A DNA stretch of 64,000 bases. It comes from an uncultured Candidatus Saccharibacteria bacterium (lineage in GTDB: Bacteria > Patescibacteriota > Minisyncoccia > Phycocordibacterales > UBA2100). The translations under genes were made by a program, and so were the position numbers. The DNA is taken from the NCBI GenBank assembly GCA_964648335.1, contig CAZYLZ010000007.1, positions 1,034-65,033 on the forward strand, given 5' to 3'. The notes under the pieces were generated by a model, which saw only the letters and a program-made list of their open reading frames with translations, did not search any database and was not told where the DNA came from. Positions 7,025-63,072 of the stretch are shown here, in pieces (within the stretch, counting starts at the first letter, position 1; every line of letters starts with the position of its first letter).

Positions 7025-7185
7025 GCGCACGGATAATAAATAAACTCCTTCTCAGGAGCGTGCGCGTTTATCTTCCCCCGAGAGGGGTTTGGATGGGGCA
7101 CCTTCTAGAGACCGTAGTCGCTATGGGTTGCCGGCGGTTCGTAGAGCCAAAACTCTCCCCGCACTCTTGATACATATTTCCGACC
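7025..7185 (-). promoter_or_regulatory. SAM-I (S-box) riboswitch in the metK 5' leader
   Basis: The minus-strand RNA reads AUCAAGAGUGCGGGGAGAGUUUUGGCUCUACGAACCGCCGGCAACC...GGUGCC...CCCCUCUCGGGGGAAGAUAAAC. This matches the S-box consensus (AUCAAGAGAGG.GGAGGGA.UGGCCC.AUGAA.CCCGGCAACC ... GGUGCC ... AGAUGAG). A downstream helix CGCGCACG/CGUGCGCG encloses CUCCU..AGGAG, an SD-sequestering structure, just before the metK AUG. Confidence 0.6.
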
Positions 7186-9675: not shown

Positions 9676-9811
9676 GAGCCGCTCGAAATATCTGTGTACG
9701 TACTCCTTATCCAACGAAATTAGCTGAATGTGGATTGTGTCGAGGGATAGTAAACAGGCACCCATTGATTGATTAGCGAAATCACTGCAATAAGGGCAAA
9801 GCAAAACGACA

Positions 9812-10483
9812 TCAGGTACCGTTAAACATATAACCCTCGTTAGGGAAAAGTTCCTCGATCATTTTTTCGAGTTTTGCGCCATCGATCATTTCGATGCCGA
9901 CCCGCGTGCCGTCCACGATTGCCTCTTTGCTATACGATCCCGTGGTCACAAATATGCCGCGTTTGGTTCCATGCAAGACAAACGAGCCCAAGAATTCACG
10001 AATTTCGTTTGATCCCACCGATCCTGCATAGCGCTTTACCTGAACCGCAGTGATTTCGCCCTTCTTGGTAAGGAGAATATCGATTCCTTTGTCATTACTG
10101 CGTCGTGTTACTTCTACTTCGTATCCTTGGTGAGCAAAAAGCCTCGAGATATGGTGCTCGAACTTAAACGGGTCCATGTCGCGAAACACCGACACAACGC
10201 GTTGAATACCCAACTCTTGTGCCTCGGTGTGCCAGGCATTCGATTCGTCGATCTTTCCCTTAACAAATCGATACGTGATAACTCCGGCGTATCCAAGACA
10301 AGCCAAAGCTCCAAGGGTAAGAATAGTTTGCCAATAGCCCGCACCGACGTCGATCAGGGATCGTACAATCGGAGCACCAGCTGCGATCAAAAGTACTGCC
10401 CCGACCGCAAGCTCGATGCTGTTGTTCCGTCTTGTCCTGCGCCTGCGTCGTGCCATATATGAGTGTTCTACCGCGATTTCCAT
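9812..10483 (-). CDS. Membrane-anchored restriction endonuclease, Mrr-like catalytic domain
   Basis: N-terminal TM helices. The C-terminus FEHHISRLFAHQGYEVEVTRRSNDKGIDILLTKKGEITAVQVKRYAGSVGSNEIREFLG..GIFVTTGSYSKEA is the Mrr_cat (PD-(D/E)xK) pattern. Confidence 0.65.
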   Translation of the reverse strand: MEIAVEHSYMARRRRRTRRNNSIELAVGAVLLIAAGAPIVRSLIDVGAGYWQTILTLGALACLGYAGVITYRFVKGKIDESNAWHTEAQELGIQRVVSVFRDMDPFKFEHHISRLFAHQGYEVEVTRRSNDKGIDILLTKKGEITAVQVKRYAGSVGSNEIREFLGSFVLHGTKRGIFVTTGSYSKEAIVDGTRVGIEMIDGAKLEKMIEELFPNEGYMFNGT

Positions 10484-10566
10484 GCGGGAGCAACGTGCTC
10501 ATGACCACTAGTGTTCTAATTGTAGCGAATAAGAGGATAAGAAGCAGGAATAGTGACTGTCGCAAT

Positions 10567-10576
10567 TAATTCTAGA
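10567..10576. repeat. 10-bp direct repeat TAATTCTAGA (right copy)
   Basis: See 7186..7195. Confidence 0.35.
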
Positions 10577-10613
10577 TGCTGGCGGCAGGTGCGGGCGGTG
10601 GTACCATGGCGGC

Positions 10614-11126
10614 ATGAAAACCATACCTTTGTATGAGCACTCGATACCGGTATTTATCGGCGGTCTTAGCAATCTAGGCAAGGTGTTGGACATCGCCGAG
10701 ACATACGCCGAAAAGCAGAAGAAAAAGCCCGAGAGCGTGTTGCATGCGCGGCTTGCGCCCGACATGTTCGACCTCATCCAACAGGTCCAGTATGCATACT
10801 TCGTCGCGCTCGATGCCGCCGTTCAGCTTTCGGGACGTCCGATGCCTGCAGGCTTCGATTACGACGAGACAACGTTTGCTGCGTTGAGAAAAAGTCTTAA
10901 GAAAGCCATAATTTTCTTGCGGAGCATTACGCCGGCGCAGTGCGCAAAAGCCCATACCAAGAAGCTGCCTGTGTTTTACAATCCCGAGAAAAAGGTCCCT
11001 GCGCTTACCTTTGTGACCAAGCTTGCGGTACCAAACTTTTTCTTTCATTGCGCCACGGCATACGGCATTGTCCGCGCCTTTGGAGCGCCGCTCAAGAAAT
11101 CGGATTATCTCGGCCCAATCCGTTAA
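10614..11126 (+). CDS. DUF1993-family protein
   Basis: The N-terminus LYEHSIPVFIGGLSNLGKVLDIAE matches the DUF1993 signature (..SVPVFIRGL.NL..IL.KAE). Confidence 0.55.
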   Translation: MKTIPLYEHSIPVFIGGLSNLGKVLDIAETYAEKQKKKPESVLHARLAPDMFDLIQQVQYAYFVALDAAVQLSGRPMPAGFDYDETTFAALRKSLKKAIIFLRSITPAQCAKAHTKKLPVFYNPEKKVPALTFVTKLAVPNFFFHCATAYGIVRAFGAPLKKSDYLGPIR

Positions 11127-11178
11127 GCGCAGGTGGTGTCTGGATGACCAATGCGTGGCCCGACAACGAACAGACTTT

Positions 11179-12072
11179 TTATATACCGCAGACGCGGGAC
11201 AGCTCGGCTAAGTCTGCCGGTGCAGCTAGGGTCGAGGTTCCGGTATTGCTCGCGTACATGATGGCTCCTTTGGTTGGTATGTGGTCCATACCAAGCGAGT
11301 GTCCCATCTCGTGGGCCAAGACTCGTACCAACTGCGGGGTGTCGGTAAATTCGAAAATGGTGATACGACGCTCCGATCCGTACTGGGTATACAATCCCTG
11401 CTCGAACTCGCCGACTTTGGCGATGCGCTGGTTGTAGTCGGCGATCTTGGCGTTGAGGATGGCCGAAAGCGCAACCAGACTGTCGGCAAGTGCGTTTATT
11501 TTGGTTACCTGCGTGTTCTGTATATCTTGCTCGGCCTTGAGGGTGTCGAAGCGGGTAGCAAGTGCTGCCTCGCGCACGACGAGCTGGCGGTATTCGTCTT
11601 GCGAGGCACCACCTTTGGTATTGGTAGCAGCGACATCGGCGTTATAGCGCGCCTCGTCGGCCTTGTAGATGGCAAACTGAGCGCTGTTGGTTGCCTGCGC
11701 TTCTTTGGTAGAGCTTGCAAACGTCGCAAACTGCGTCTGTATAAGTTCGAGTGCGGTCTTAAACAGGTTGAGTCGAGCCAAGGTCGCGGCATTTTGTACC
11801 GACGTGGCTTGTCGCGAGTCGTAGACGAAATCGATGGGGAGTACTGCGCTCGTGGTTGCGTAGACAAAGAGGTTGCGACCAGTTGGCGTTTCCCAAATAG
11901 CTTCGGCGCGCGAAAGTGCATCGGTGATAGCGGGCGCGGCAACGCCAAAGCGCGCGTCGATAGCGCCGATCTTGTAGGTTACGGGCGTCGCACATACACT
12001 GCCTGCGCTTGCAATACCATGCGGCAGGAAACAAAAAGCCACTACGACGATTCCAAACAGGGTTCGCTTCAT
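11179..12072 (-). CDS. Secreted zinc metalloprotease, metzincin/matrixin-like
   Basis: Signal peptide MKRTLFGIVVVAFCFLPHGIASA. The C-terminus VLAHEMGHSLGMDHIPTKGAIMY is HExxHxxGxxH plus a Met-turn. Confidence 0.7.
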   Translation of the reverse strand: MKRTLFGIVVVAFCFLPHGIASAGSVCATPVTYKIGAIDARFGVAAPAITDALSRAEAIWETPTGRNLFVYATTSAVLPIDFVYDSRQATSVQNAATLARLNLFKTALELIQTQFATFASSTKEAQATNSAQFAIYKADEARYNADVAATNTKGGASQDEYRQLVVREAALATRFDTLKAEQDIQNTQVTKINALADSLVALSAILNAKIADYNQRIAKVGEFEQGLYTQYGSERRITIFEFTDTPQLVRVLAHEMGHSLGMDHIPTKGAIMYASNTGTSTLAAPADLAELSRVCGI

Positions 12073-20786: not shown

Positions 20787-22019
20787 ATGCATTCAAACAT
20801 TAGAACGATTCCCAATAGCCTCAAGGCTTCATTATTGGCACTTACAGTAGCGTCGGGTGTCGCTTTTGCGATGCCGGCATTTGCTGCTGTTGCACCCACT
20901 GTCACGGTGGGCGCTCACGATGGCTCGCATGCGACCACGACCACCGTACAGATAGGCCTTCCGGTTCACGCGGTGGGCTTTGTCGCGTCTACGTCAGGCG
21001 CGGTAGCGACCGGTACTGTCGACTTTGTCGTGTACACGGCATCAACCGCGTGCGTCGGCACCTCTACGACGCAGTCGGGCGTCGCGCTGATCAACGGCAC
21101 AACCGAATCAGCAGCGACCGTAATGCCGAATACCGGACTCTCGTTCCGCGTCCATTACAATGGTAATAACGACTACGTTCCTGCAGACAGTTCCTGTCTT
21201 GCGGTTAATCCTGCAAAACTCGTCCCAACCGTAACAAGCGATATCCGAAATGCATCAAACGCAAGCGTCTCAAGCGTGTCTCCAACCACGACGGTCCGCG
21301 ACTTCGCTACCGTAACCGGTTCTGGCGCACAGCCCACGGGCACCGTCGACTTTACCTTCTATAGCGATCTCGCCTGTACGCTCGCTCCGCTTGCATCAGG
21401 CTCGGGCGTGGCACTTCTCGGATCGAATGCTACTTCGAGCGATCAGACTCCTGTAGTCCCTGGCTCATACTCGTTCAAGGCGCACTATAACGGTGATGCA
21501 AACTACGCAGCAAAAGACGCCAACTGCATGCCACTCACGGTAACCGGCACGACCCCGACTCCAACACCGACCACCACTCCGTCGACCCCAGGATCCATAA
21601 CCGGCCGCGTCTTCAACGACCTCAACAAGAACCGCACCTTCGACACCGGCGACACGGGACTTGCAGGATGGACCGTCTCCTTGCACCAGGTCGCATCATC
21701 GACTCCATGGTGGAGGCGCGCGATGGGTCGTTTGTACAACTCGCCGATCATAGCTACGGCAGTCACTGATGCAAACGGCAACTACTCGTTCGCTAATCTT
21801 GCCGCAGGTACGTACTTTGTCGAAGAGATGCTCCAGAAGAACTGGCGCCAGACGACACCTGATACGAAAGTGGTCCTCTCAACTGCTACTGCCTCGGGCC
21901 GAGTCGACTTTGCCAACAACGATAAAATCAAGAAGGTAAAGCAGATCAAGCACGAGAAAGAAGACAAGAAAGAGAATCGTGGAAACTCTGGTCATGGCCG
22001 AAGCGGTCGCGACGACTAA
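20787..22019 (+). CDS. Secreted repeat protein with a C-terminal Cna-B/SdrD-B-like domain and a basic tail
   Basis: Signal peptide. Two ~110-aa repeats (..TGTVDFVVYTAS..HYNGNNDY.. and ..TGTVDFTFYSD..HYNGDANY..). A TPTPTPTTTPSTP linker. GRVFNDLNKNRTFDTGDTGLAGWTVSL...TDANGNYSFANLAAGTYFVEE is a Cna-B-type fold. Confidence 0.6.
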   Translation: MHSNIRTIPNSLKASLLALTVASGVAFAMPAFAAVAPTVTVGAHDGSHATTTTVQIGLPVHAVGFVASTSGAVATGTVDFVVYTASTACVGTSTTQSGVALINGTTESAATVMPNTGLSFRVHYNGNNDYVPADSSCLAVNPAKLVPTVTSDIRNASNASVSSVSPTTTVRDFATVTGSGAQPTGTVDFTFYSDLACTLAPLASGSGVALLGSNATSSDQTPVVPGSYSFKAHYNGDANYAAKDANCMPLTVTGTTPTPTPTTTPSTPGSITGRVFNDLNKNRTFDTGDTGLAGWTVSLHQVASSTPWWRRAMGRLYNSPIIATAVTDANGNYSFANLAAGTYFVEEMLQKNWRQTTPDTKVVLSTATASGRVDFANNDKIKKVKQIKHEKEDKKENRGNSGHGRSGRDD

Positions 22020-25652: not shown

Positions 25653-25965
25653 GACAGTCTCCGTTGAGTTGTGCCGGAAGCTACCCCGGCTGCTAGCTGA
25701 TGGAAGCATACACCACGGACTCATCTTGTCGCCAAAGAAGCTATTTTATGTAGGATTTGAGCCATTTTTACATCACGGCTCGACATGCTGGCAACTGAGT
25801 GATGTATTCTAGGACGACATTGACTTATGGTCAAAATTTTGGTATACACATTGACGGCACAAGGGGTCGGTTAACGCCGGCCCTTTCTAGTCCTTTGACA
25901 ACCGCATAGGTTCAAGACTGGTTAGTCAAAGAAACTCACTAATTCCAACAGAAGGGAGTTTGACC

Positions 25966-27336
25966 ATGGCTACAAATAGCAAGACGACAGCGCAGTCTCG
26001 TCCTAAGACCATGACGGTCGAAGCGGTCGAGGCGGCACATCGTCGTAATGCGGCGCAACTGCAGGAGCGTAATCGCACCGCGCAGGAAACTGCGGCGCGC
26101 GTTAAGGAGACGGTCGATAAGTTCCAAGCTGCTTTGCAGCGTGGCGACATCGACCAGACCCAGATCCTCGCCGCCGACTTCAAGAGCGCAAACGAAGCGG
26201 GACTAAAGCAGACCCGCGACATTGCACAGGTACTGATGGCGCTGCAGGAATCGTCGAAAGACACCGGCATCGTCCTCAAGAATGTCGGCGAACGCAATGA
26301 TCAAGAGCAGGCCGTGATCGACGCAGCCGTCGCGGTGCAAGCCGCGAAGGAGGCAGAACTGAGAGCCGCTAACGACGAGCTCGCAAAGGCGAAAAATGCA
26401 TGGTTCAAGGATCGTGCCGAGGCTGCCGCGAAAGACGCGATCGCCAAGGCCGAAACCGGACTCGCAATCGCGAAGGAAGCGGTTACGACCGCGACCCAGA
26501 TGGCGGAGAAGATGAAGCGCGACAGACTCGTCAACATGAGTCTCGACAAGTCGATCGCGCAGCTCAGCGAGATCACGCAGCAGGTTGTTGCGCTCGCACG
26601 TGACCGTATCGCCGACATCGAGGGTAACCTCGGGGCGGTGAAGGCTGGTCGCGAAGAGATCGCCGAAAACTTGAAGCAGTACGCACTCGATGCCGAGGCC
26701 CGAAAGGCCGAGGTGCTCGAGAAAACGGCTGCGATCAAGAACCTCGAAGATCAGCATGCCGAACAACAAGAGAATTCATCCGAATGGATGGATCTCAAGG
26801 CGAAGATCGAAGCCGAACGCAGCGAGCTCACGAGGCTCGAGGCGGCGCACAACAAGTCGTTCACCCTTCTCAATGACGGGCAACGCTTCCTGCAGATGTA
26901 CCATGTGCAGGAGACGGCCCAACGCGAAGCGCTCGGCTTCCATGAGATCTGGATCGCGACTTTGGAGAGCGGCGAGCGGGAACGCTCGATACTTTACACG
27001 TCGCATCTCGGCATCGTGAAGGCGGCCGGCGATCAGCAGATGCTGTCGGATGTCGATGCTGTGGCAACGCAGAACGACGAAGACATCACACTGCTTTCGT
27101 CGCGGCATCTGGCCGCGATGCGCAATAGCACACTCAAGCGTGGTCAGGCCCTCCCGGGTCAGATTAAGCGTTTGACGCAGATCAGCGAAGCGGATTCTAT
27201 GAGCAAGGCGTCGTTCAACGACGGCATGGAGAAGCTTGCCAGACAGTTCCAGGAACTGTACGGCGAGACCGCGGGCACAACGAATCCTGCCAACTACATG
27301 CCCGAAGATTCCGGCACTGTGACGCCGGCTTCGTGA
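25966..27336 (+). CDS. Large coiled-coil protein (TelA/PspA-like in composition only); first gene of a six-gene operon
   Basis: RBS AAGGGAG 7 nt upstream of the ATG. About 450 aa, almost entirely heptad-like Ala/Glu/Lys/Gln-rich helices. Confidence 0.55.
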   Translation: MATNSKTTAQSRPKTMTVEAVEAAHRRNAAQLQERNRTAQETAARVKETVDKFQAALQRGDIDQTQILAADFKSANEAGLKQTRDIAQVLMALQESSKDTGIVLKNVGERNDQEQAVIDAAVAVQAAKEAELRAANDELAKAKNAWFKDRAEAAAKDAIAKAETGLAIAKEAVTTATQMAEKMKRDRLVNMSLDKSIAQLSEITQQVVALARDRIADIEGNLGAVKAGREEIAENLKQYALDAEARKAEVLEKTAAIKNLEDQHAEQQENSSEWMDLKAKIEAERSELTRLEAAHNKSFTLLNDGQRFLQMYHVQETAQREALGFHEIWIATLESGERERSILYTSHLGIVKAAGDQQMLSDVDAVATQNDEDITLLSSRHLAAMRNSTLKRGQALPGQIKRLTQISEADSMSKASFNDGMEKLARQFQELYGETAGTTNPANYMPEDSGTVTPAS

Positions 27337-27415
27337 AGAAACAAAGGCCTTTGGCCGCAACTACAAAGGGGCCCGTTGGGCCCCTTTTCTCTAACCCGCA
27401 GCAAAGGAGAAGCTC

Positions 27416-28609
27416 ATGCACGACGTGCATAGCCGCGTCGAAGTAGATCCGGTGAGATACAAAGATTATCTTGGCCTGTTGGTCGAGGTACTCGAGAGTC
27501 TCAGTCGGTACTATGGCGACAGCGAGCGAGAAGGGCGCACCCGCGAAGAAGAATCGATGGCTCTGTACGCGAACAAGTTTTTCGAGACCGTGAAGGCGCT
27601 TCGGCTTAAATTCCTTCACAGCCCCGTCTACCTTTCGCGACCAGGCGTCGATCTTACCGACTCGGGTTTCCCGAACTTCTACGACATCATGCAGCTCGAT
27701 GCCGATCTCTCCACCAGGGGAGAGCGGCTTCCAAAGCTCCCGCCGATCGACGTCTTGAAGGAATTGCTCCTCGAACATGTGATGATCGTTCCGTCACTGG
27801 AACAAGAAGATGATCACGTGGCGAAGATGCATCACTATCTCTGGCAGATCTCTGAGCGCGCGTATCTGGAATCACTCGACCTTCGGGTCCAGTTCTTTCA
27901 GTTCACGCCAGGGAAGCTCGAGCAGGTACCTCAAGACGAGTTCCGCGAAGAAGGACGACGTTCGTACACCTTCTCGTGGGGCTGCTACGATCCACAAACG
28001 AACAGGCCGTCCGTGTACTTCATGCTGTTCACACAGGATGAGACCGAGCGGCCGCTCGACGAGGTCAACAATCCCGAATACGCGAAGTTTCTCGACACCG
28101 TGCGGCATGTCGCCGCACGCGCGCCGAAGCAGCTGAAGGTAATCGGGCTCGGCCTCGACGAGCTCTTCAAGAACCTCTACCCGAAAGCTATCAAGCGGTT
28201 CAATATCGGACCCTTGGTGTCGCCGATGCTCTACAAGGGGTTGGGCGAAGGAATCGGACACGATACGTTTGCTCTGAGGCTCTTGCCTCTGTTCGAACGG
28301 TCCGAGCTGAACGACGACGATTTCGTCCTGTTGTTCAACACGGAATTCGTGTACTCCGAGCGCGAAGAAGTGCCAGAGAAATTCCTGCCGTTCGGAAAAC
28401 AGAAAGTCAGGCAGATGTTCTATGTGCCCAAGAACGACCGCGAGCTCTTGCGGCGCGGCGCGGGGGCATTTTTGCCCTACGCGCTCATGCCACACAGGCT
28501 CCGGCAGCACATCACTCCTGCCATGCTCGAAACCATCCCCGAATTCAACAACGGCACGTCCTTGTTGGTGTACGGGGAAAACAACGGAGAAGTGATAAAT
28601 GTCGGCTAA
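27416..28609 (+). CDS. Hypothetical protein (397 aa); operon gene 2
   Basis: RBS AAAGGAGAAG upstream. Its stop overlaps the next gene by 11 nt. Confidence 0.5.
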   Translation: MHDVHSRVEVDPVRYKDYLGLLVEVLESLSRYYGDSEREGRTREEESMALYANKFFETVKALRLKFLHSPVYLSRPGVDLTDSGFPNFYDIMQLDADLSTRGERLPKLPPIDVLKELLLEHVMIVPSLEQEDDHVAKMHHYLWQISERAYLESLDLRVQFFQFTPGKLEQVPQDEFREEGRRSYTFSWGCYDPQTNRPSVYFMLFTQDETERPLDEVNNPEYAKFLDTVRHVAARAPKQLKVIGLGLDELFKNLYPKAIKRFNIGPLVSPMLYKGLGEGIGHDTFALRLLPLFERSELNDDDFVLLFNTEFVYSEREEVPEKFLPFGKQKVRQMFYVPKNDRELLRRGAGAFLPYALMPHRLRQHITPAMLETIPEFNNGTSLLVYGENNGEVINVG

Positions 28610-30590
28610 GACTGGCTCGGAGATCCCAATCACTCAGGGCGATATCGCGAAATTCTTCAAGAGCGCGAGTATGCTTCTCGTAAGCGTGTCTCATGCACCC
28701 AAGAAGGATCTCGCTGCCTTGCGCAGTGATTCGGCTCCGCAAATGAAAGCGCCAGGACTCATGTTCGGCTCTGGCCAAGCGAGTCCTGAATCGCGGCAGA
28801 GCATGGCGATCCTCAAGGTCGCCAAAGAGCTCAACCAAGGCGACGATCTCTTCGATGAGAACGTGAACGTCGCTTTGAACGCGGTGCGGACCGGTCTTCA
28901 GATCGGATTCCACATCGCCTACTTGTACGGCAAGACCTCGGGACTCGAGGCTCTGCAGGCAAGGAGAAAGCGCAACGAGCTCAAGCTCGATGCAGAAATC
29001 GCTGAGTGGACAAAGAAGATGGAAGCGCAAGCGGCCATCACACTGTTCGTCGCCGCGAGCTACGTCACCTGGAAGCTCTCAGGCCTCAAAGCCGAAGAAC
29101 TCTCTGGCGTGAACGTGTCGTTCCTTGGATTGCCCGAGCTCGTCTTGGGCGGCCAGGCACAGGCGACAGCTGGAATGCTGTACCACTTCGGCGCATATGC
29201 GAGCACTGTGCAAAGCGGGCTCGAGTTCCTCAAGCTCACCGACATGTACTTTCGCGCCGTCCTCGACGACGTGAAGATGCAATCCAAGAGCTTCGTGGAA
29301 TCGACCGCGGACTTTACCGACAAGAACTATCGCCTCGAGGGCTCTGCCTTCACGGTGAGCGGATTCGAAGCGGCAGCGTCCGGTGGTCGCAGGCTGGTGG
29401 AGTTCAAGCCTGTCTACGCGAAAGAGATCGTGGGTAACGTCGAGGCGAAGCGTTTTACGCTCCGTGTCGCACGGTTCCTCATGGCCTACGACGTGAAGAG
29501 AAAAATGAACCCGATGATGGAATTCGGTGCGTTCCCGTGGATGTACCTGTATAGCGGGGAACCGGGCACTGGCAAGACGATGCTCATCAAGCTCGCAATG
29601 AGCATGGTGCGCGATCACTGCCAGGTGCTCGATATTCCGTTCAGAGTCCACGAACTGCCGGGCGACCTCATCAGTACCTACCAAGGCGGCTCGGCCGAGC
29701 GGTTCGAGCAATGGTGGTCGGTACTCCGGAATCCCGGAGAGATCATCGTGGCTCCGATCGACGACGCAGAGAACATCTTTACCGAGCGATCGGGCGAGAA
29801 CGTCTCGGCAGGCAGCAAAGAAGTCGTGGCGTCGTTACTGCGATGCACCGAAGGCGCGACCGCGATCAATCGCGGCAACGTCATTGTGCCCTGGGCGACG
29901 AACATCCCCGACATGGTGGATGCGGCAGCGATGTCGCGCATCATGGCGAAGATCCCGGTGCCTGGGGCGGTGACACGCAACGACTTCAACGACCAGATGC
30001 GCATGTGGGGCGACGGCCTTCAGAAGCTTTCCCCCGGTATCGTCGACCTCGCATGGCCGAACGATTACCGGTATCTGGCCGATCAAGACATCTCGATGGT
30101 CCCGGATGCGCAAAAGCGCAGTCGGGATGCGCTCGTCGAGTTCAAAGACGAACGCTTGGTGCGCCTGTACGACGAAGTGCGGGCGCAGGGGATTTCTTTG
30201 CAGTCGTACGATCTGCACGGAACGCTCTTCGCCAGCATCAAAAAACATATGAACCGCTTCACCTCGCGTGAGGTCCGCAACATCACGACGGTGGTGATGT
30301 CGAGGTTGTTCGACTTCGACTTTCCGCCCGAATGGCTTTCCGATCGTGCCGCTTTCGTCGAGAAGGACTATGACACCAAGCGTGCCATGATTCTCGAGCT
30401 CGCGAAGGTGAACATGAAAGGACAGAAGCTCTCTGAGATACTTTTCGAGGAGATGGTGCGGTCGGTAAACGCGATGGTAGAGATCATAGACGGCGGACGT
30501 ACCCGCCGTGTCAGAAAAATGGCAGAAGACCTCCTGGAACGTTCCGAGGCTCAAGAGCTCGCGGTGCGTATGAAAGGAGGTTCGAAATAG
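28599..30590 (+). CDS. AAA+ ATPase (classic clade: Vps4/katanin/FtsH-like module) with a ~290-aa N-terminal domain of unknown function
   Basis: EIVGNVEAKRFTLRVARFL (box II-like). Walker A YSGEPGTGKTMLIKLA. Walker B region GEIIVAPIDDAENIF, with DD rather than DE. Second region of homology ATNIPDMVDAAAMSRI. The similarity to Vps4/FtsH spans the whole module. Confidence 0.75.
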   Translation: MSAKTGSEIPITQGDIAKFFKSASMLLVSVSHAPKKDLAALRSDSAPQMKAPGLMFGSGQASPESRQSMAILKVAKELNQGDDLFDENVNVALNAVRTGLQIGFHIAYLYGKTSGLEALQARRKRNELKLDAEIAEWTKKMEAQAAITLFVAASYVTWKLSGLKAEELSGVNVSFLGLPELVLGGQAQATAGMLYHFGAYASTVQSGLEFLKLTDMYFRAVLDDVKMQSKSFVESTADFTDKNYRLEGSAFTVSGFEAAASGGRRLVEFKPVYAKEIVGNVEAKRFTLRVARFLMAYDVKRKMNPMMEFGAFPWMYLYSGEPGTGKTMLIKLAMSMVRDHCQVLDIPFRVHELPGDLISTYQGGSAERFEQWWSVLRNPGEIIVAPIDDAENIFTERSGENVSAGSKEVVASLLRCTEGATAINRGNVIVPWATNIPDMVDAAAMSRIMAKIPVPGAVTRNDFNDQMRMWGDGLQKLSPGIVDLAWPNDYRYLADQDISMVPDAQKRSRDALVEFKDERLVRLYDEVRAQGISLQSYDLHGTLFASIKKHMNRFTSREVRNITTVVMSRLFDFDFPPEWLSDRAAFVEKDYDTKRAMILELAKVNMKGQKLSEILFEEMVRSVNAMVEIIDGGRTRRVRKMAEDLLERSEAQELAVRMKGGSK

Positions 30591-30609
30591 ACATCAAGAC
30601 CTGCGGCGA

Positions 30610-30631
30610 TTGTGCCGCAGGTCCAAACGCG
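30610..30631 (+). promoter_or_regulatory. Intra-operon hairpin cctgcggc-gattgt-gccgcagg between the AAA gene and gene 4
   Basis: Perfect 8-bp GC stem with no T-tract. It may be an RNA-processing or attenuation site. Confidence 0.3.
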
Positions 30632-30644
30632 AAGGGAGCGATAC

Positions 30645-31916
30645 GTGAAAATCCATTCGGTGAAGCCTCTATTGAAGAGAGGTCTCTTCAATGCAGGACT
30701 CGTGGAACTCAGTCCCACGATGCTCGCACGATATAACGATGCGCTTGTGTCCTTGGGCCTCGAGCCCACGCGACGCAAGCGAGTGCTCGTCGACGGCGTT
30801 GGCTGGAGCCCGCAGATCGCACGTGAACGGAGAAATCCGTACTACATGTGCTCGGGCGGCCTGGTAAACCCGGTCGCGATTATTGTCTCGCCAGACCAGT
30901 ACAAGAAGCCGGTCTATTGGCCGATCTTCTCTTGGATGCGCGGCGCAATGCGCCTTGTATTCGAAAAGTACCACCGCGAGATCATCGACATAACGGGGAC
31001 GCATGTCATCTCGCTCGATTGTGAGAACGGCCTGTCGACCCTGGAAGGTCCCAAAGACCTGCTCCTGTTGTCCGAGGTCACCCTGAAGCCCAACACAGGC
31101 CTATTGGTGGAAGCGGCGCTCGAACAGGCAGCGCTCGTGAGTCGATTCATGGACGGGTTGCACTGTCTCGAATCCGAGACACGCAACACGCTCATAGCTC
31201 ATCGACGTGCGCATTCGGATCTCCGTAAACGCCGTGTCACTATGCAGCCGGTTACGTTCGACTTCTTCAACGACTTCTATACCGTCGCATTTGGCGGGGT
31301 GGCGGTGTTGCGAGACGTCGACGGTTCCGACATGCTCGTCATGGAGAGCCAGAGCGATTACGAGGCGATCAAAGGAAGCGACACGAACGCGGTCATCTGT
31401 TATCTGTACGACAAGGACGCGGAAACGACGGGATACTTGGCTAATGCTGGGTTCCTTAGGATCCCGTACGAAGAATACCGGTCAGATCCCGCACACCTCG
31501 AGAGAAAGAAAGATCTCCTTCTCGCACTCGCCTTGTGCGACTGCGAAGAGGGGCTCGACTGGAGTGCGACGAGCCCAGCCAAGCGCAAAATGCTCATCAA
31601 GAAGCATGGGGCGAAAGTGCCTCATCTCTATGCAGAGCTTGAGCGCTTCGCAGCGGCGGTACGGCGTGGATCCAAAAGCGTCGAGCTCTCTCGAGAGCTC
31701 TGGCACTACCTCGCCATACCGTCCGATAACGTCACTCCAACAACTAAAGAAGTGCTATGGATCTTGCTTACCCGGCTGGAACCGCGACGCGTACTCAACC
31801 TCTATCGGTACGACAAGAATAAGTTTTTCGAAGTCTACTCGGGGTGGAGTGTCGCAAAACAGGAATGGGTAGCAGACTACATCAAGATGCGGTACGAACC
31901 GCGCATGAACAGCTAG
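30645..31916 (+). CDS. Hypothetical protein (~423 aa); operon gene 4
   Basis: GTG start with AAGGGAG 7 nt upstream. The ORF track opens at 30612. Confidence 0.5.
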   Translation: MKIHSVKPLLKRGLFNAGLVELSPTMLARYNDALVSLGLEPTRRKRVLVDGVGWSPQIARERRNPYYMCSGGLVNPVAIIVSPDQYKKPVYWPIFSWMRGAMRLVFEKYHREIIDITGTHVISLDCENGLSTLEGPKDLLLLSEVTLKPNTGLLVEAALEQAALVSRFMDGLHCLESETRNTLIAHRRAHSDLRKRRVTMQPVTFDFFNDFYTVAFGGVAVLRDVDGSDMLVMESQSDYEAIKGSDTNAVICYLYDKDAETTGYLANAGFLRIPYEEYRSDPAHLERKKDLLLALALCDCEEGLDWSATSPAKRKMLIKKHGAKVPHLYAELERFAAAVRRGSKSVELSRELWHYLAIPSDNVTPTTKEVLWILLTRLEPRRVLNLYRYDKNKFFEVYSGWSVAKQEWVADYIKMRYEPRMNS

Positions 31917-31932
31917 CAAGAAGGAGAATCGC

Positions 31933-32556
31933 ATGTCCATCCTTGGACTATCGTTTGGCAGCTACCTGATGACGTGCATATGGCTTTCTATCGTCATCGG
32001 CATGATCGGGTACTCGATCGAACGCTTCATCGGTATTCGCATCTATCGCGTGGTCTACGATATCTGTCATCGCAATCCGATGCCGGCGTCGGAGACGCGC
32101 GGACTCTTGTACGGGCAATCGACGAACCGGAAGATCTCGGTGGTCACGGCGCTGTCTATCGTACAGAGTCTCTACATGGTGTGGAGCCAGCACGTCAATC
32201 CTGCGGCGGAGATCGTCGCAGCATTCGTGGAGGTTCCGGCATTTTTGGTAGGATTCGCACTCATGGGTTTCGTGCATCCGTACATCCTCCGTCGAAGCAC
32301 GTACTTCGACACGATGGATAAGTTCGGAGATAGCGTGGGACACATGAGTGCCGGAGATGTGAAGCAACGTCTCTGGGGCTACGGCGGATCACTCGTGGAA
32401 AAGGCATACGCACTCCGCTTACGGCTCATGTCGAGCCCGAAGCGCGAGACGCCGAAGCCGGTCGTCGAGGCACAAGCGGAACCAAAAACGGTACCGCTCG
32501 AAGAAGCCAAGGAAGACCCACAAGACGTCATCAATCGCTATACGCGGAGGCAGTGA
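31933..32556 (+). CDS. Hypothetical membrane protein (207 aa, ~4 TM); operon gene 5
   Basis: RBS AAGGAGAATCGC-ATG. Hydrophobic helices. Confidence 0.55.
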   Translation: MSILGLSFGSYLMTCIWLSIVIGMIGYSIERFIGIRIYRVVYDICHRNPMPASETRGLLYGQSTNRKISVVTALSIVQSLYMVWSQHVNPAAEIVAAFVEVPAFLVGFALMGFVHPYILRRSTYFDTMDKFGDSVGHMSAGDVKQRLWGYGGSLVEKAYALRLRLMSSPKRETPKPVVEAQAEPKTVPLEEAKEDPQDVINRYTRRQ

Positions 32557-34184
32557 TGCAAGATTCGGTCACTCGCGACAAGAGTGTCGCACCCGATTCG
32601 TGGCACGAGGAACCCTGGTCGTTTTTCCAGGTGCCCTCGGCCAGGTTTCGCGATTACGTACGGCACAAGTACGATGAGTATCCTAAGGCGACAATCTCGG
32701 TCATCGCACTGGTGCTCCTCGCGCTCATCGTCGAACGGCCGCTCTATCACCACGTGCTCATCGCGGCACGCATTTACAGTGCCGCGGCGGTACTCACGGT
32801 GCTCGCGTGTCTCGGCACCTGGTGGCTTCTCGTTCGCGCGCCCATCCGTATCAAAGCGGTAGGGAGCGTAATCGGAGTCATGGTGGTGGCAGCCATCCTC
32901 TTGTTCGGAAAAAGCTCGCATCAGTATGTATCGCAATACCTGCGCTACAAAACACTCGAGCACACCGTGGTCGATCTTACTCAGCGGCCGCTGACGGACA
33001 ACGAACGGCTTCTTGCACTCAACGGCGTCCACACGGCCGCTCGCGAGCGCATGAACGAGACCGAAGCGCCGACCCTGCCGGACCTCGTCCGAGACGGGTC
33101 ATCGTATGTCTGGACGATGGCGATCGAGCCGGGCAAATCACTCGGACGCTTTCTCGATGATATCGAGGAGCTCCTCGTGATCCCGGCAAACGAACCATCG
33201 CCTGACATATCTCGTCGTAATCGAACACGGGTACACTTCGATGTTGGCGAGAGCCTCGCGTTCTCGCGCAACATCAACACCTGTGTCACGCGCGCGCTTT
33301 CGCCCTGGCGTCTGTTCTCGTACGAGCCCGGCAACGTGACTCGTATCAAGGACGACTCCGGAAAATGGGTGCAGGCAGTGACCCTGATAAAGTGGTCGGG
33401 CTGGCTCTTTCCGTGGCCCGAGTTCGGCGGCGTGCAGATCGTCGAACAGGGGAGTACGAATATCATCGGCCGCAACCTTTGGGGATGCGGCAGATGGATC
33501 CCACCCGAAAAGATTGCCGAGCATAAGTACTTGCTCGGTCAGAACCTACAACCGTACGAGGTGACCCGTTTCATGGCCGCGAGCCTCCGCTTCCAAGCGG
33601 GGTTCACCGGTCCCATGTGGTTCTCGCGCAAGGGCGATCTGCGTATTGCGGATATGCCCGAGGACGTGAACCAGCAGCCGTTCACCTTGTACTTCAACAT
33701 GCCGAACGGGAGCGCGAAGCTCTATCAGTACTTCGCGCTCGAGCCGCAAGATGCCGACAAGCAAGGACTCGCGACGAGTTTCTATGTTCCGGCTGACGGC
33801 GTCGGCGCGAAGTTCGAGTACCGGCACTTCCACCTTAAAGAGGCGCCTATCGGCGTCACGACGGTGGCAGACCAGGTACGAGCGTCACGAAAGAATTACG
33901 ACTGGGTGCGTAACGCTCCGGTCGAAGTGCGTCCCTACACTCACATGATTGCCGATAGCAAGGGCAACCTCGCGCCTCGCTTCACGTGGATGGTGACGGT
34001 CGTGACGATCAAAGAGAGGAAGCCGGGCGTTCCTCTCGAATTCACTTCGGGCTCTGATCCGGAAATCGCTCTGGTCGATGCATACCGCGCTCGCGTGGTA
34101 TGGGTCGATTCTCAGCATCCCGACAGGTGGCCCGAACAGCTGCGTGCTTCGCTTGGAGAACTCTGGGCGGCGGGCACTCAGTAA
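32556..34184 (+). CDS. Hypothetical membrane protein (3 N-terminal TM helices plus a ~400-aa soluble domain); operon gene 6
   Basis: GGAGG 5 nt upstream. TGATG overlap with gene 5. Confidence 0.55.
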   Translation: MQDSVTRDKSVAPDSWHEEPWSFFQVPSARFRDYVRHKYDEYPKATISVIALVLLALIVERPLYHHVLIAARIYSAAAVLTVLACLGTWWLLVRAPIRIKAVGSVIGVMVVAAILLFGKSSHQYVSQYLRYKTLEHTVVDLTQRPLTDNERLLALNGVHTAARERMNETEAPTLPDLVRDGSSYVWTMAIEPGKSLGRFLDDIEELLVIPANEPSPDISRRNRTRVHFDVGESLAFSRNINTCVTRALSPWRLFSYEPGNVTRIKDDSGKWVQAVTLIKWSGWLFPWPEFGGVQIVEQGSTNIIGRNLWGCGRWIPPEKIAEHKYLLGQNLQPYEVTRFMAASLRFQAGFTGPMWFSRKGDLRIADMPEDVNQQPFTLYFNMPNGSAKLYQYFALEPQDADKQGLATSFYVPADGVGAKFEYRHFHLKEAPIGVTTVADQVRASRKNYDWVRNAPVEVRPYTHMIADSKGNLAPRFTWMVTVVTIKERKPGVPLEFTSGSDPEIALVDAYRARVVWVDSQHPDRWPEQLRASLGELWAAGTQ

Positions 34185-34211: not shown

Positions 34212-34246
34212 AAACGGGCGACTCGCATGAGTCGCCCGTTTTTTAT
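34212..34246. terminator. Hairpin aaacgggcgactc-gcat-gagtcgcccgtttttt; bidirectional
   Basis: Perfect 13-bp stem with flanking A/T tracts. It sits between the operon end and the convergent Nudix gene. Confidence 0.75.
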
Positions 34247-34932
34247 ATGACCTCGATGGGTACTACCGTGCTGGACTTGAACTTGTATAAGGCTGCGGGG
34301 CGCGAGCGTCCGCCGGTACGCTTCTTTCCAAGATCGGTGAGTATGCCGAGTTTTAGGATCTTCTTGCGGAAGTTTCGCTTGTCCAAATCGGTCTTGATAA
34401 TGCTCTCGAACGACTGCTCGAGTTCGGTGAGGGTGAATTCTTTTGGCATGAACTTGCTTAAGAGTGTTGTGTACGTGACACGCGACTGCAGGCGCTCGAC
34501 GGCGAGCTTGAGGATCTCGTCGTGATCGTATGCGAGCTTCTTCGCTGCCGCCAGAGGCGCCCACCATGCGCTCTCGGTATCCGCTTTTTCTTCAGTAGAA
34601 AGGGTGTCCCATGACGCGAGTCCGAGATAGGCGACAGACACGACGCGGCCACGTGGGTCACGGTCGATATCGCTAAACGTATAGAGCTGCTCGATATGAG
34701 GTGTCTTTGCGTCGATGTGTCCTTTTTGGGTGAGTATGCGGAGGGCTGCCATACGCGCAGTCTCGTCGGGATGGATGAGTCCGCCAGGCATGGCCTTCGA
34801 GTCGGGGTAGTGGGGGATGCGGTGTACTGGTGCAAGCCTGACCAAGAGTTGTCCGTCTTTGATGGTAAACAAGACGACGTCGACAGCGAGGACCGCAAAG
34901 CGCAGATGCTCGGGAGCGAGAGGTTTTTCCAT
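34243..34932 (-). CDS. Nudix hydrolase-like domain fused to a C-terminal winged-helix domain (NrtR-like regulator)
   Basis: Degenerate Nudix box PGGLIHPDETARMAALRILTQKG. The C-terminus FTLTELEQSFESIIKTDLDKRNFRKKILKLGILTDLGKKRTGGRSRPAALYKF matches the NrtR wHTH family. The start codon is uncertain (ATG at MEKPL, or an upstream TTG). Confidence 0.6.
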   Translation of the reverse strand: MEKPLAPEHLRFAVLAVDVVLFTIKDGQLLVRLAPVHRIPHYPDSKAMPGGLIHPDETARMAALRILTQKGHIDAKTPHIEQLYTFSDIDRDPRGRVVSVAYLGLASWDTLSTEEKADTESAWWAPLAAAKKLAYDHDEILKLAVERLQSRVTYTTLLSKFMPKEFTLTELEQSFESIIKTDLDKRNFRKKILKLGILTDLGKKRTGGRSRPAALYKFKSSTVVPIEVI

Positions 34933-35136
34933 AGTGCCCGTATCATACTCCAACCTTTGATATTGTCAATAGTACACTTATGCACAGCCTACATAGTGTA
35001 TGCTTGACACGTTTACAAGCTGGGTGTAGTCTCGAAGTAGGAGATAGTGTACAAAGTACATTTAGTACCGCGTACTCAGTACCTCGACATCGGGACCGAC
35101 CTCTGACACAGGAATGTCCCTCTATAGGAGGAATAC

Positions 35137-36279
35137 ATGAGCTCAACCGATTCGTTTACCGAAGTCGCGCGCGCCATCCGAAGTGCGCGAACCTTCGCCA
35201 ACGTCTTCGGGTCACTTGGCCCAGGAGACGCCATCACCAGACGCTCCGGCCTGCGAAAGCAGTTCGGCTACCTGGCAAAGATGGTGCATCCTGACCTTGT
35301 CGCCACGAAGCATCGTACCGACGCGGCAGAGGTGTTCAAGCTCTTGAACACCTTGCGGCATGCGGCCGAAGAAGCCATTCAGCAAAATACCTACGATGCG
35401 CCCTTCGGATCGACAATCTCGTTCGCCGAGTCGGAAGACGGCGGCGAACTAGTATCGCCCGCAGGCACGTACCGGCTCAAGGTTGAGCCGCTGTGCCAGG
35501 GCGACTTCTCGGTCTTGTATCGCGGCACCAAGCAGGGCGCAAAGCCCGAGCTGGTGCTCGCCAAGGTCGCGAGCGATCCAACGTCCAATGCATGGCTCGA
35601 GAAGGAGGCGGCGCTCTTGCGTACCATCGCAGGAGCAAAGCCAGATTCTGCCATCGCGGGCATCCGTCGATTCTTGCCGCAGATCAAGGACACATTCCTG
35701 TTCGTCGGCGAGAAGAACACACGCTACCGAACGACGATTTCCGTCTGGGTTCCCGACATGGTCTCGATAACCGACATCATGAAGGCGTATCCTGCGGGGC
35801 TCGACCCGTCCGAGGCGTGGCCGCTGCGACGCATCATTGCGCAGACGCTCGCAGCTTCGATGCTCGGCGTCGTACACGGCGCTATCGTTCCCGACCACGT
35901 GCTCGTCGATCCCTTCAAGCACGAACCCCTCCATATCGGTTGGGCACATGCGGTAAAGAAGGGCGAGAAGATCACGCAGATTATCGATCGCTGGCGCGAC
36001 TGCTATCCGCCCGAGGTCTTTGCTAAGAAGGCTGTCGATCATCGCACCGACATCTACATGGCGGGCGCGACGATTGTAAAGCTTCTGGGCGGCTCCGTGG
36101 AGCGCAAGTCGCTTCCGGCAGCTGTGCCAAAAGAACTGGCAACGCTCGTGTTGCGTTGTCTCGAAGATTCCCCGAAGAGTCGTCCGCAAGACGGCTTGGA
36201 ACTCCTGAACGAATTCACTCGCGTCATCAGGAAGATATGGGGGAGGAACTATCGGGTACTTACCATACCCAATAGTTGA
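35137..36279 (+). CDS. J-domain protein fused to a protein-kinase-like (predicted pseudokinase) domain
   Basis: N-terminal J domain LRKQFGYLAKMVHPDLV...EVFKLLNTLRHAAEEAI, with HPD. Kinase fold: Gly-loop region QGDFSVLYRG, LVLAKV (beta3 Lys), HGAIVPDHVLVD in place of HRDLKPxN, IGW in place of DFG, YPPEVF (APE-like) and DIYMAGATIVKLLGG. Confidence 0.65.
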   Translation: MSSTDSFTEVARAIRSARTFANVFGSLGPGDAITRRSGLRKQFGYLAKMVHPDLVATKHRTDAAEVFKLLNTLRHAAEEAIQQNTYDAPFGSTISFAESEDGGELVSPAGTYRLKVEPLCQGDFSVLYRGTKQGAKPELVLAKVASDPTSNAWLEKEAALLRTIAGAKPDSAIAGIRRFLPQIKDTFLFVGEKNTRYRTTISVWVPDMVSITDIMKAYPAGLDPSEAWPLRRIIAQTLAASMLGVVHGAIVPDHVLVDPFKHEPLHIGWAHAVKKGEKITQIIDRWRDCYPPEVFAKKAVDHRTDIYMAGATIVKLLGGSVERKSLPAAVPKELATLVLRCLEDSPKSRPQDGLELLNEFTRVIRKIWGRNYRVLTIPNS

Positions 36280-36317
36280 TATCAGCGAGAAATCGAAACC
36301 TAGAAAAGGAGAACACC

Positions 36318-37328
36318 ATGGGTGGTGGATCTTGGGATACCAAATCGTATGTTTCGTCTGCATCGTCGCGTCGCTCGGCCGGCATTGCCGACTTCGATTA
36401 CGACGCGAAGGTGAAGTCAGGTGCCGCAAGCGGAGTGCACGCGAGTCTCGATCCTAAGAAGGTCGCAGGTTCGACCAGTCCACTTGCCGGCAAGAACGTG
36501 CGCGAAAGCCGCGACGGTCCGGATCATCCGGAATCGCTGCCAATCGCGTTCTTCTTCGACGTCACCGGATCTATGGGCGAGATTCCCATCATGCTCCAGA
36601 AGAAGGTTGCTACCTTGATGGACGTGATTCTCGCCAAGGCCGGGGTCAAGGACCCGCAGATCCTGGTGGGTGCCATCGGCGACTCTACCTGCGATCGATA
36701 TCCGTTCCAGGTGGGCCAATTCGAGTCGGACAACCGATTCGAGGAAGCTCTCCGTTCGATCATCATCGAACGCGGCGGCGGCGGACAGAACATGGAGTCG
36801 TATGCGCTCGCATATCGCTTCATGGCCTATCACACAGCTACCGACGCCTGGGAGAAGCGAGGTAAGAAGGGCTATCTCTTCACCATGGGTGACGAGATGC
36901 CATGGCCGACCGTGACGTCTCGCGACGTGTACAAGCTCTTCGGAGTGGAAGCCGCGAAAGATGAGACGGTCGAAGAGCTGCTTGCCAAAGTTCGTGAAAA
37001 GTGGGAGGTATTCCACCTGTTCTCGAAGGATGGCAGCTACGCCAACGACACAAAGGTCCACGATCGGTGGCGCACACTTCTCGGCGAGCGCTTCGTGATG
37101 GTCGAGGACTCGTCCCTGGTCTGCGAGATCATTGCCGGCCTCGTCCACATGCTCGAGACTGCAGCCGACGTCGACACTGTCGTCGCCGACATCGGGGTCA
37201 AGGGTGCCGCCGGAGCGGCCGTGAAAAACGCGCTCGTGCCGGTGGCGCGCTCGGTAGTGCCGTCGCATGTCGCCAAAGGCACGCTCGCTCACAAGAAGGG
37301 AAAGACTCCGGGCGTAAGCAGGATCTGA
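36318..37328 (+). CDS. von Willebrand factor A (vWA) domain protein, TerY-like
   Basis: RBS AAAAGGAG upstream. MIDAS-like IAFFFDVTGSMGEIP at the start of the domain. Confidence 0.65.
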   Translation: MGGGSWDTKSYVSSASSRRSAGIADFDYDAKVKSGAASGVHASLDPKKVAGSTSPLAGKNVRESRDGPDHPESLPIAFFFDVTGSMGEIPIMLQKKVATLMDVILAKAGVKDPQILVGAIGDSTCDRYPFQVGQFESDNRFEEALRSIIIERGGGGQNMESYALAYRFMAYHTATDAWEKRGKKGYLFTMGDEMPWPTVTSRDVYKLFGVEAAKDETVEELLAKVREKWEVFHLFSKDGSYANDTKVHDRWRTLLGERFVMVEDSSLVCEIIAGLVHMLETAADVDTVVADIGVKGAAGAAVKNALVPVARSVVPSHVAKGTLAHKKGKTPGVSRI

Positions 37329-62999: not shown

Positions 63000-63072
63000 T
63001 GGACCCTGGGAGATTCGAACTCCCGACATCCACATTGCAAATGTGGCGCTCTACCAGCTGAGCTAAGGGCCC
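63000..63072 (-). tRNA. tRNA-Cys (anticodon GCA)
   Basis: The minus-strand read GGGCCCUUAGCUCAGCUGGUAGAGCGCCACAUUUGCAAUGUGGAUGUCGGGAGUUCGAAUCUCCCAGGGUCCA folds into a canonical cloverleaf: 7-bp acceptor stem, D loop AGCUCAGCUGGUAGAGC, anticodon loop UUGCAAU, T loop GGUUCGAAUCC-like. Confidence 0.85.

Follow-up and report, generated by a model that had tools for sequence, protein, structure and literature searches.

A conserved six-gene bacterial operon combining a classic-clade AAA+ ATPase with a pair of membrane proteins

Several of the described systems closest to the operon considered here combine an AAA+ ATPase with partners that act at or near a membrane. In the Vps4-ESCRT-III system (CdvC/CdvB in archaea) a single-module classic-clade ATPase is encoded near a helical protein and acts near the membrane, the PspA/Vipp1 (IM30) envelope-stress systems bring together a helical membrane-associated protein, an AAA+ protein and small membrane proteins in one operon, and in FtsH-HflK/HflC a classic-clade ATPase is placed at the cytoplasmic membrane together with large extracytoplasmic partner domains. 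Each of these arrangements resembles in outline that of the six-gene operon found at positions 25966-34184 of a 64,000-nucleotide stretch (the window) from an uncultured Candidatus Saccharibacteria bacterium (GCA_964648335.1, contig CAZYLZ010000007.1, positions 1,034 to 65,033). The operon consists of six open reading frames (ORFs) on the plus strand, called here g1 to g6, of which g3 encodes the ATPase. The reading that we tentatively favor, with a likelihood somewhat short of even, is that of a horizontally mobile two-module machine, in which a cytoplasmic AAA+ remodelling unit is docked on a membrane/surface unit.

The alignment of g4 was scanned against one genome per species for 185,579 species and revealed g4 relatives encoded in at least 466 of these genomes; 80 loci were fetched from the matches, and iterative profile searches were run over 89 loci from other organisms. 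In 65 of the 89 loci the full set of six genes is present, colinear and on one strand, and this constancy of order and strand argues that the gene set is not due to chance. Most of the incomplete loci are interrupted by contig ends. The median intergenic distances in the 65 complete loci are 75, 4, 11, 11 and 9 nt, which shows that the tight coupling is itself conserved. An earlier note on this DNA, made from the sequence alone, had staked its interpretation on the conservation of the cluster as a unit, and such conservation is what the loci display.

The carriers comprise many lineages of Patescibacteria, many Bacteroidota (marine Flavobacteriaceae, Chitinophagales, Saprospiraceae), Gammaproteobacteria, Desulfuromonadales, Bdellovibrionota and Verrucomicrobiales; by phylum they include Desulfobacterota and Verrucomicrobiota, and the distribution is patchy over at least seven bacterial groups. 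Cultivated carriers are found among the marine Flavobacteriaceae Aquimarina, Maribacter, Winogradskyella and Tenacibaculum, and include Desulfonema magnum. Candidatus Kaiserbacteria and other Patescibacteria supplied close homologues, and the G+C content of the window is ~56%; by these criteria the source of the window is probably a Kaiserbacteria-like member of the candidate phyla radiation.

In a neighbour-joining tree of g3 and g4 combined, Patescibacteria fall into at least three clades, which are interleaved with Proteobacteria, Bdellovibrionota and Desulfobacterota. This conflict with taxonomy indicates that the operon spread by horizontal transfer on repeated occasions, though errors in metagenome binning could account for some of the cases. 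The cluster of a ‘Gammaproteobacteria’ metagenome-assembled genome (L014) is sister to a Buchananbacteria one (L015), and that of an ‘Alteromonas’ metagenome-assembled genome (L082) is nested within Flavobacteriaceae; these placements reflect either recent horizontal transfer or a binning error. Phage records and viral contigs yielded no relatives of the cluster, and a phage origin was rejected for this reason. Among plasmids g1 had no match, while g6 matched two distant haloarchaeal genes only.

By its sequence g3 is a classic-clade AAA+ ATPase. It matches the Pfam family AAA (PF00004) over residues 317-454 with 51.9 bits (cutoff 21.2), and its nearest relatives in the PDB are Afg2/SPATA5, Cdc48 and VAT (E = 3e-10 to 2e-8), followed by Vps4 (E ~3e-5 to 1e-4), fidgetin-like 1, FtsH (E ~2e-4) and the proteasomal ATPases, in agreement with the kinship to Vps4 and FtsH that the earlier note had recognized. 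The motifs were read from HMMER alignments to Afg2/SPATA5 and the invariant columns from 27 orthologues of the sampled bacterial groups, over which the mean column identity is 50%. The Walker A motif is GEPGTGKT, with G320, P322, G323, T324, G325 and K326 invariant, the aromatic pore loop 1 is STYQGG, aligned with SKFYGE (S-K-F/Y-x-G-E) and invariant at S359, Q362 and G363, and sensor 1 is formed by A-T434-N435. The Walker B motif (29760-29771) reads I-D388-D389-A-E391, compared with I-D-E-L-D in Afg2/SPATA5, and D388, D389 and E391 are invariant in all 27 orthologues; it is a deviation inside the classic AAA family and not a ground for exclusion from it.

The GxPGTGKT Walker A motif, the aromatic pore loop 1, the sensor-1 T-N and an arginine in the second region of homology (SRH) are common to g3, Cdc48/p97/VAT and Afg2/SPATA5. 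However, the latter proteins contain two AAA modules and g3 only one, the D-E-x-D Walker B of Cdc48 and Afg2 is D-D-A-E in g3, which also has just one of the two arginine fingers, and both the ~290-residue N-terminal domain and the C-terminal extension of g3 are unrelated to their counterparts in these enzymes. Unlike Cdc48 and Afg2, g3 is encoded together with five family-specific partners. FtsH, in turn, possesses transmembrane (TM) helices and an M41 protease domain, both of which are lacking in g3, and neither g5 nor g6 is a band-7 protein. The N-terminal domain of g3 is, as first thought, novel: the profile of 13 orthologues gave no match in the PDB (best E = 0.62).

The two last genes encode membrane proteins, as had also been proposed, with hydrophobic segments present in both. 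Hydropathy places such segments at residues 3-29 and 94-119 of g5, which has ~3 TM segments overall, and at residues 46-64, 68-94 and 100-118 of g6. The loop between the first and second segments of g5 is conserved and positively charged and contains the motif YNLTHKDPLP with an invariant His46 (alignment of 20 orthologues). After the last hydrophobic segment, a low-complexity Pro/Glu/Lys linker precedes a short conserved C-terminal motif, a candidate docking peptide. In g6, seven Lys/Arg residues lie within residues 1-45, while R96, R99 and K101 lie in the TM2-TM3 loop. Following the positive-inside rule, g6 is probably oriented N-in, C-out, with its large domain outside the cytoplasmic membrane, and we infer that the loop and the C-terminal tail of g5 are cytoplasmic. 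The AlphaFold model of g6 (predicted local distance difference test, pLDDT, 91.1; predicted template modelling score, pTM, 0.87) shows membrane helices at the N-terminus and, beyond them, a large alpha/beta domain. Orthologue matches of g6 range from E = 1e-80 to 1e-200, and its family counts 329 cluster representatives out of 1.84 billion at E <= 0.001.

A fusion of the two proteins exists in P0103 (720 aa), where the g5 profile aligns to residues 9-137 (hhalign 98.5%, E = 1.8e-15) and g6 to residues 174-718; P0174 is a second, weaker case (88%). The fusion in P0103 speaks for g5 and g6 being a single unit, and it is compatible with the predicted topology because the C-terminus of g5 and the N-terminus of g6 would both be inside. 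Two g6 relatives, P0100 (696 aa) and P0101 (757 aa), are extended at the C-terminus by 140-220 residues, for which Pfam gives no match. A distant relationship links the large domain of g6 to haloarchaeal membrane proteins that stand alone (hhalign 96.5%, E = 8.6e-10). Their genes are located on megaplasmids (L090:8563-10146 and L092:7233-8771) and carry the annotations ‘PgsC/CapC’ and ‘ABC transporter permease’, respectively; no Pfam match supports the former annotation, which looks doubtful. A catalytic triad of Ser409, Asp415 and His425 was considered for g6 and dropped, as the haloarchaeal homologue does not share these residues. No consistent Pfam match was found across the g6 orthologue set (23-27 members in each of the g1, g2 and g6 sets), its PDB profile search gave nothing significant, and the confident models of g4 and g6 have no structural neighbour found in the PDB.

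The remaining partners are g1, g2 and g4. The composition of g1 is rich in Ala, Glu, Lys and Gln with 1% Pro, and therefore it is probably a helical cytoplasmic protein. The earlier note had called it almost wholly coiled-coil; its helical nature is probable, while the extent of the coiled coil is unproven, as a crude heptad score is high in patches only and the best-conserved part (residues ~290-440) is non-repetitive. The conserved part corresponds to the C-terminal third, which in most orthologues terminates with a YG(I)D motif, and g1 orthologues occupy the first position of the cluster across phyla. g2 is cytoplasmic and conserved across phyla (for example, E = 1e-57 to the Trueperaceae orthologue); its 27 orthologues have no Pfam match and its PDB profile search gave none. 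Comparisons rejected a relationship of g1 to the N-terminal domain of g3 as well as the possibility that g2 and g4 are paralogues.

The claim that the five partners of the ATPase match no recognisable family holds for g1, g2, g5 and g6, none of which found a family in Pfam, NCBIfam or PADLOC. It does not hold for g4, which is a member of DUF6638 (PF20343; 93.8 bits vs a cutoff of 27, E = 1.4e-26). Membership is over the full length, with residues 34-429 of g4 covering profile positions 10-398 of 439, and the same domain is present in 27 of 27 database homologues of g4. Pfam assigns no function to DUF6638, and no mention of it was found in the literature library searched. The AlphaFold model of g4 has a pLDDT of 88.8 and a pTM of 0.86; its PDB profile search returned nothing significant.

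No description of the operon was found in that library, which was searched for Vps4-like bacterial operons, Patescibacteria AAA+ clusters and classical-AAA neighbourhoods, and PADLOC v2 has no model of this system. A published survey of NTPase conflict systems describes other architectures. Since characterised relatives are lacking for five of the six proteins and structural neighbours in the PDB for two, and published surveys show other architectures, the operon is rated as an undescribed kind of system, a judgement that extends over the library searched.

In the two-module reading, the first module would be cytoplasmic and comprise g1-g4, with g3 as its engine, presumably ring-forming. Because Walker A, the aromatic pore loop 1, sensor 1 and one arginine finger are kept, g3 would most likely grip a polypeptide and thread or remodel it, and the long helical g1 as well as g2 and g4 would presumably be adaptors, regulators or the substrate of g3. 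The second module would consist of g5 and g6, where the ~410-residue domain of g6 would lie on the outer face of the cytoplasmic membrane and g5 would contribute its conserved cytoplasmic loop and a flexible tail with the short conserved end motif. The tail or the loop of g5 would bring the cytoplasmic module to the membrane, where ATP-driven remodelling by g3, be it of g1, of the g5 tail or of a client, would be coupled to binding or sensing by the surface domain of g6. The outcome would be an accessory, envelope-associated protein-remodelling system, neither core housekeeping nor a typical defence-island set.

Several observations weigh against this reading. The catalytic Glu position of the Walker B motif is occupied by Asp in 27 of 27 g3 orthologues, and in the SRH only a single arginine, R447, is aligned with the GR of ‘RPGR’, while the first arginine of the classic pair falls into an alignment gap. 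Owing to the D-D-A-E Walker B and the one arginine finger, g3 may be a slow, switch-like ATPase rather than a processive unfoldase. The topology of g5 and g6 is derived from hydropathy and the positive-inside rule only, and the coupling of the two modules is drawn from gene order and one fusion. Moreover, the haloarchaeal g6-like proteins were found to have no AAA+ neighbour and to share no common gene context. In Trueperaceae, Desulfonema magnum and L004 a form restricted to g1-g4 occurs, with no membrane genes found nearby, so that the cytoplasmic module is able to exist without adjacent g5 and g6. As for the D-D-A-E motif itself, a slow ATPase and a relocated catalytic base are alternatives.

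Conserved operons of unknown function are not rare; this one is unusually well defined, widespread, centred on an ATPase informative about mechanism and present in cultivable bacteria. Its six genes stay together across Patescibacteria, Bacteroidota and Desulfobacterota, and only one domain, the AAA module, has a known biochemical activity. An ATP-driven remodeller joined to a pair of membrane proteins that probably extends to the surface of the cell would be comparable to FtsH-HflKC and ESCRT-III-Vps4, types which do important envelope work. In the small genomes of Patescibacteria an 8-kb operon probably repays its cost and may be relevant to the biology of their cell envelope. The invariant D-D-A-E Walker B, unusual among classic AAA proteins, is of mechanistic interest of its own.

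The operon might instead be an anti-phage or other conflict system, where g5 and g6, directed by the AAA+ module, would act as sensor or executor, for example by damaging the membrane or by exclusion. The patchy spread and the disagreement of the gene tree with taxonomy are in line with such a role, as is the location in Trueperaceae, where a divergent pair of a STAND-NTPase/TPR protein (796 aa) and an S8 peptidase is conserved upstream of g1-g4 (L003 and L022) and a type I CRISPR-Cas locus with MazEF/PIN toxin-antitoxin genes follows downstream (L003). This defence-island location is true in Trueperaceae and not general: housekeeping genes, for metallo-beta-lactamase-fold, GNAT, acyl-CoA dehydrogenase and ABC-F proteins, prevail among the 118 closest neighbours of the cluster in 80 loci, and the neighbours that recur across Flavobacteriaceae (Lactamase_B 9, GNAT 8, acyl-CoA dehydrogenase 5) reflect synteny. 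PADLOC, applied to 150 ORFs located no more than 5 kb from the cluster in a diverse set of loci outside Flavobacteriaceae, found no defence enrichment, with three matches at most for each family and mostly generic domains.

The similarity of g3 to known defence ATPases is weak, with PADLOC matches to IetA (21 bits, E = 3.8e-5) and TRIP13 (E = 6e-4) that span the generic AAA core only, and an NCBIfam ‘IteA’ match of 13.6 bits vs a cutoff of 510. IetAS couples the IetA ATPase to the IetS protease, whereas the operon has no IetS-like protease and its gene content is wholly different; the other five proteins have no match in PADLOC v2. None of the proteins shows a recognisable effector domain such as a nuclease, protease, NADase or the like, phage genomes gave no counterparts, and an operon of 8.2 kb is kept in several lineages of Patescibacteria, a group with small genomes. 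A conflict system is unlikely.

Still less probable is an analogue of ESCRT-III/Vps4 or PspA/Vipp1, in which g1 would polymerize at the inner face of the membrane, g3 would disassemble or remodel the polymer and g5 and g6 would anchor or target the process, with repair, scission or vesicle formation as the result. The earlier note had suggested this kind of membrane-remodelling machine, describing g1 as TelA/PspA/ESCRT-III-like and asking whether the N-terminal domain of g3 is MIT-like. g3 does belong to the clade that contains Vps4, g1 is long, helix-prone and always the first gene, and membrane partners are present. Yet all tests at the sequence level were negative. No match to PspA_IM30 (PF04012), Snf7 (PF03357) or TelA (PF05816) was found in 27 g1 orthologues at E <= 0.1, PDB profile searches with the whole protein and with its conserved C-terminal part returned only generic coiled coils (E >= 0.027), and hhalign of g1 against PspA gave a probability of 0.3%, so that g1 as a PspA protein was rejected at this level. 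With ~450 residues, g1 is also about twice the length of ESCRT-III or PspA, the core of which has ~220-260 residues. ESCRT-III-like proteins are, on the other hand, highly divergent in sequence. Neither MIT nor any other Pfam domain was found in residues 1-290 of g3, whose nearest relatives in the PDB are Afg2 and Cdc48 and not Vps4 (E ~6e-5), and g2, g4, g5 and g6 have no ESCRT counterpart. The four-gene form that has no membrane genes likewise speaks against this analogue. Other bacterial pairings of PspA/Snf7 proteins with AAA+ ATPases have been published, and this operon is not among them; the published PspA-AAA+ operons have other architectures, with a two-domain AAA+ protein, TPR-6TM partners or ABC/PBPb/OmpA partners (PMC11237479). 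Membrane remodelling of the ESCRT or PspA type thus remains an unsupported analogy for this operon.

A bolder proposal, which we likewise consider improbable, is that the cluster is an AAA+-powered envelope machine of a new class and a functional counterpart of ESCRT-III/Vps4 in bacteria, built from unrelated parts. Here a Cdc48/Vps4-type ATPase, held on the cytoplasmic tail of a small membrane protein, would assemble or disassemble a helical g1 scaffold at the inner face of the membrane. If true, the machine would control the shape of the membrane or the state of the surface-exposed g6 domain, and in episymbiotic Patescibacteria its site of action could be the contact with the host cell.

Comparably doubtful is a role in AAA+-powered export, membrane-protein extraction or the assembly of a surface polymer, where g3 would unfold a client or push it across or out of the membrane at g5 and g6, and the outer domain of g6 would handle the product at the cell surface. 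The intact pore-loop aromatic of g3 and a membrane pair with a large conserved outer domain would suit this role. One of the two haloarchaeal g6-like proteins is encoded among glycosyltransferase, NDP-sugar and lysyl-PG-synthase-like genes, and the weak top matches of a Foldseek search with the g6 model are beta-propeller glycoside hydrolases and the PepSY-like YpmB/YycI. However, the second haloarchaeal homologue lies in an unrelated context, g5 and g6 total only ~6 TM helices and show no recognised channel-like fold, and no conserved cargo gene accompanying the cluster was found.

A Ter/TelA-type resistance to toxic anions or general stress, the alternative named by the earlier note, has only the helical, Ala/Glu-rich composition of g1 in its favor and is very improbable, effectively refuted at the sequence level by the absence of TelA from the 27 g1 orthologues and of TerB, TerC, TerD and TerZ domains from the six proteins and from the listed top families of the 118 flanking genes.

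Returning to the operon itself, its coordinates and those of the features discussed above are collected in Table 1. The tight coupling of the six genes described in the earlier note is confirmed by the ORFs, by a purine-rich ribosome-binding site (Shine-Dalgarno) ahead of each gene, by the stop-to-start spacings, which from g1 to g6 are 79, -11, 54, 16 and -4 nt (21 nt between g3 and g4 if the latter begins at GTG 30612), and by the terminator. Two starts required a choice. The longest ORF of g1 opens at TTG 25960, whereas the sequence GAAGGGAG is located 7 nt ahead of ATG 25966 and an identical gene call of 456 residues exists in L001; ATG 25966 is therefore the most likely start, giving a protein of 456 and not, as stated before, 457 residues. 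The longest ORF of g4 opens at GTG 30612, and GAAGGGAG is found 6 nt ahead of GTG 30645. Because of this site and of the equal length (423 aa) of a 95%-identical relative, P0001, GTG 30645 is the most likely start of g4.

Table 1. Coordinates in the window of the operon genes, their domains and motifs, and the putative transcription signals
Feature	Position	Strand	Length	Remarks
g1	25966-27336	+	456 aa	
g2	27416-28609	+	397 aa	
g3	28599-30590	+	663 aa	11-nt overlap with g2
g3 N-terminal domain	28599-29468	+	~290 aa	family-specific; no Pfam or PDB relative
g3 AAA module	29535-29978	+		from HMMER alignments to Afg2/SPATA5
g4	30645-31916	+	423 aa	reading frame open from GTG 30612
g5	31933-32556	+	207 aa	
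g5 C-terminal conserved motif	32515-32553	+		DPxxxxxxYT; DWRKGxxxFL in Bacteroidota; alignment of 20 orthologues
g6	32553-34184	+	543 aa	4-nt overlap with g5
g6 membrane region	32682-32912	+		helices at residues 44-60, 62-74, 76-94 and 98 onwards; hydropathy and model secondary structure
g6 conserved alpha/beta domain	32958-34181	+	~410 residues	residues ~136-543; nearly all invariant residues
Promoter-like site (tentative)	25820-25848	+		TTGACT-17 nt-TATACA; read from sequence; within the 240-nt upstream intergenic region
Intrinsic terminator	34212-34247	+		13-bp stem with 8 GC pairs and 4-nt loop (34212-34241), T run; closes the operon

The promoter-like site is a tentative assignment on weak evidence: it is absent from the list of the consensus scan, and its second hexamer has no final T. 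The terminator ranks best of the 14 candidates that a scan found in the region, in keeping with the strength first ascribed to it. It was also said to be bidirectional, which does not agree with its listing on the plus strand only and with the mere three T that follow the stem on the minus strand. An NrtR-type Nudix/winged-helix regulator (34243-34953, minus strand) converges on the terminator, and in the Kaiserbacteria relatives it is located beside NAMPT/NAPRTase and a second Nudix gene. Further downstream, two plus-strand ORFs of 380 and 350 aa (35137-36279 and 36276-37328) overlap by 4 nt and have no Pfam match, and the first of them appears by eye to contain kinase-like motifs. The pair and the NrtR gene were rejected as parts of the system, as they accompany the cluster only in Kaiserbacteria and in one Sungiibacteriota locus (L020), where the pair is on the opposite strand, upstream of the cluster.

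Some loci depart from the common layout. In Bacteroidota, mostly Flavobacteriaceae, additional genes are inserted between those of the cluster (L033, L043, L047, L058, L059, L061, L065, L069, L075, L077-L079, L083, L085 and L088). The inserts are mostly small and on the same strand; among 35, they include 23S-rRNA-IVP/bAvd four-helix-bundle genes (7 and 4), NUDIX genes (6) and IS200 transposases (2). In L085 and L088 a minus-strand gene of ~940 aa lies between g4 and g5, and the insert hits to trypsin, Calx-beta and Por_Secre_tail (two members each) probably belong to it. In L021 (Desulfobacterales) a DUF6638 g4 gene (9893-11275) has no g1-g3 upstream, is surrounded by duplicated ORF blocks and is followed closely by the end of the contig.

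Elsewhere in the window, Rfam gives two matches only, a SAM riboswitch at 7065-7176 (minus strand, 48.2 bits) and a tRNA at 63000-63072 (minus strand), and the G+C fraction dips to 0.44 at 8001-10000, compared with ~0.56 elsewhere. The ORF at 20787-22019 (plus strand) encodes a probable surface adhesin of 410 aa, in which Big_3_5, SdrD_B and SpaA-like domains are present.

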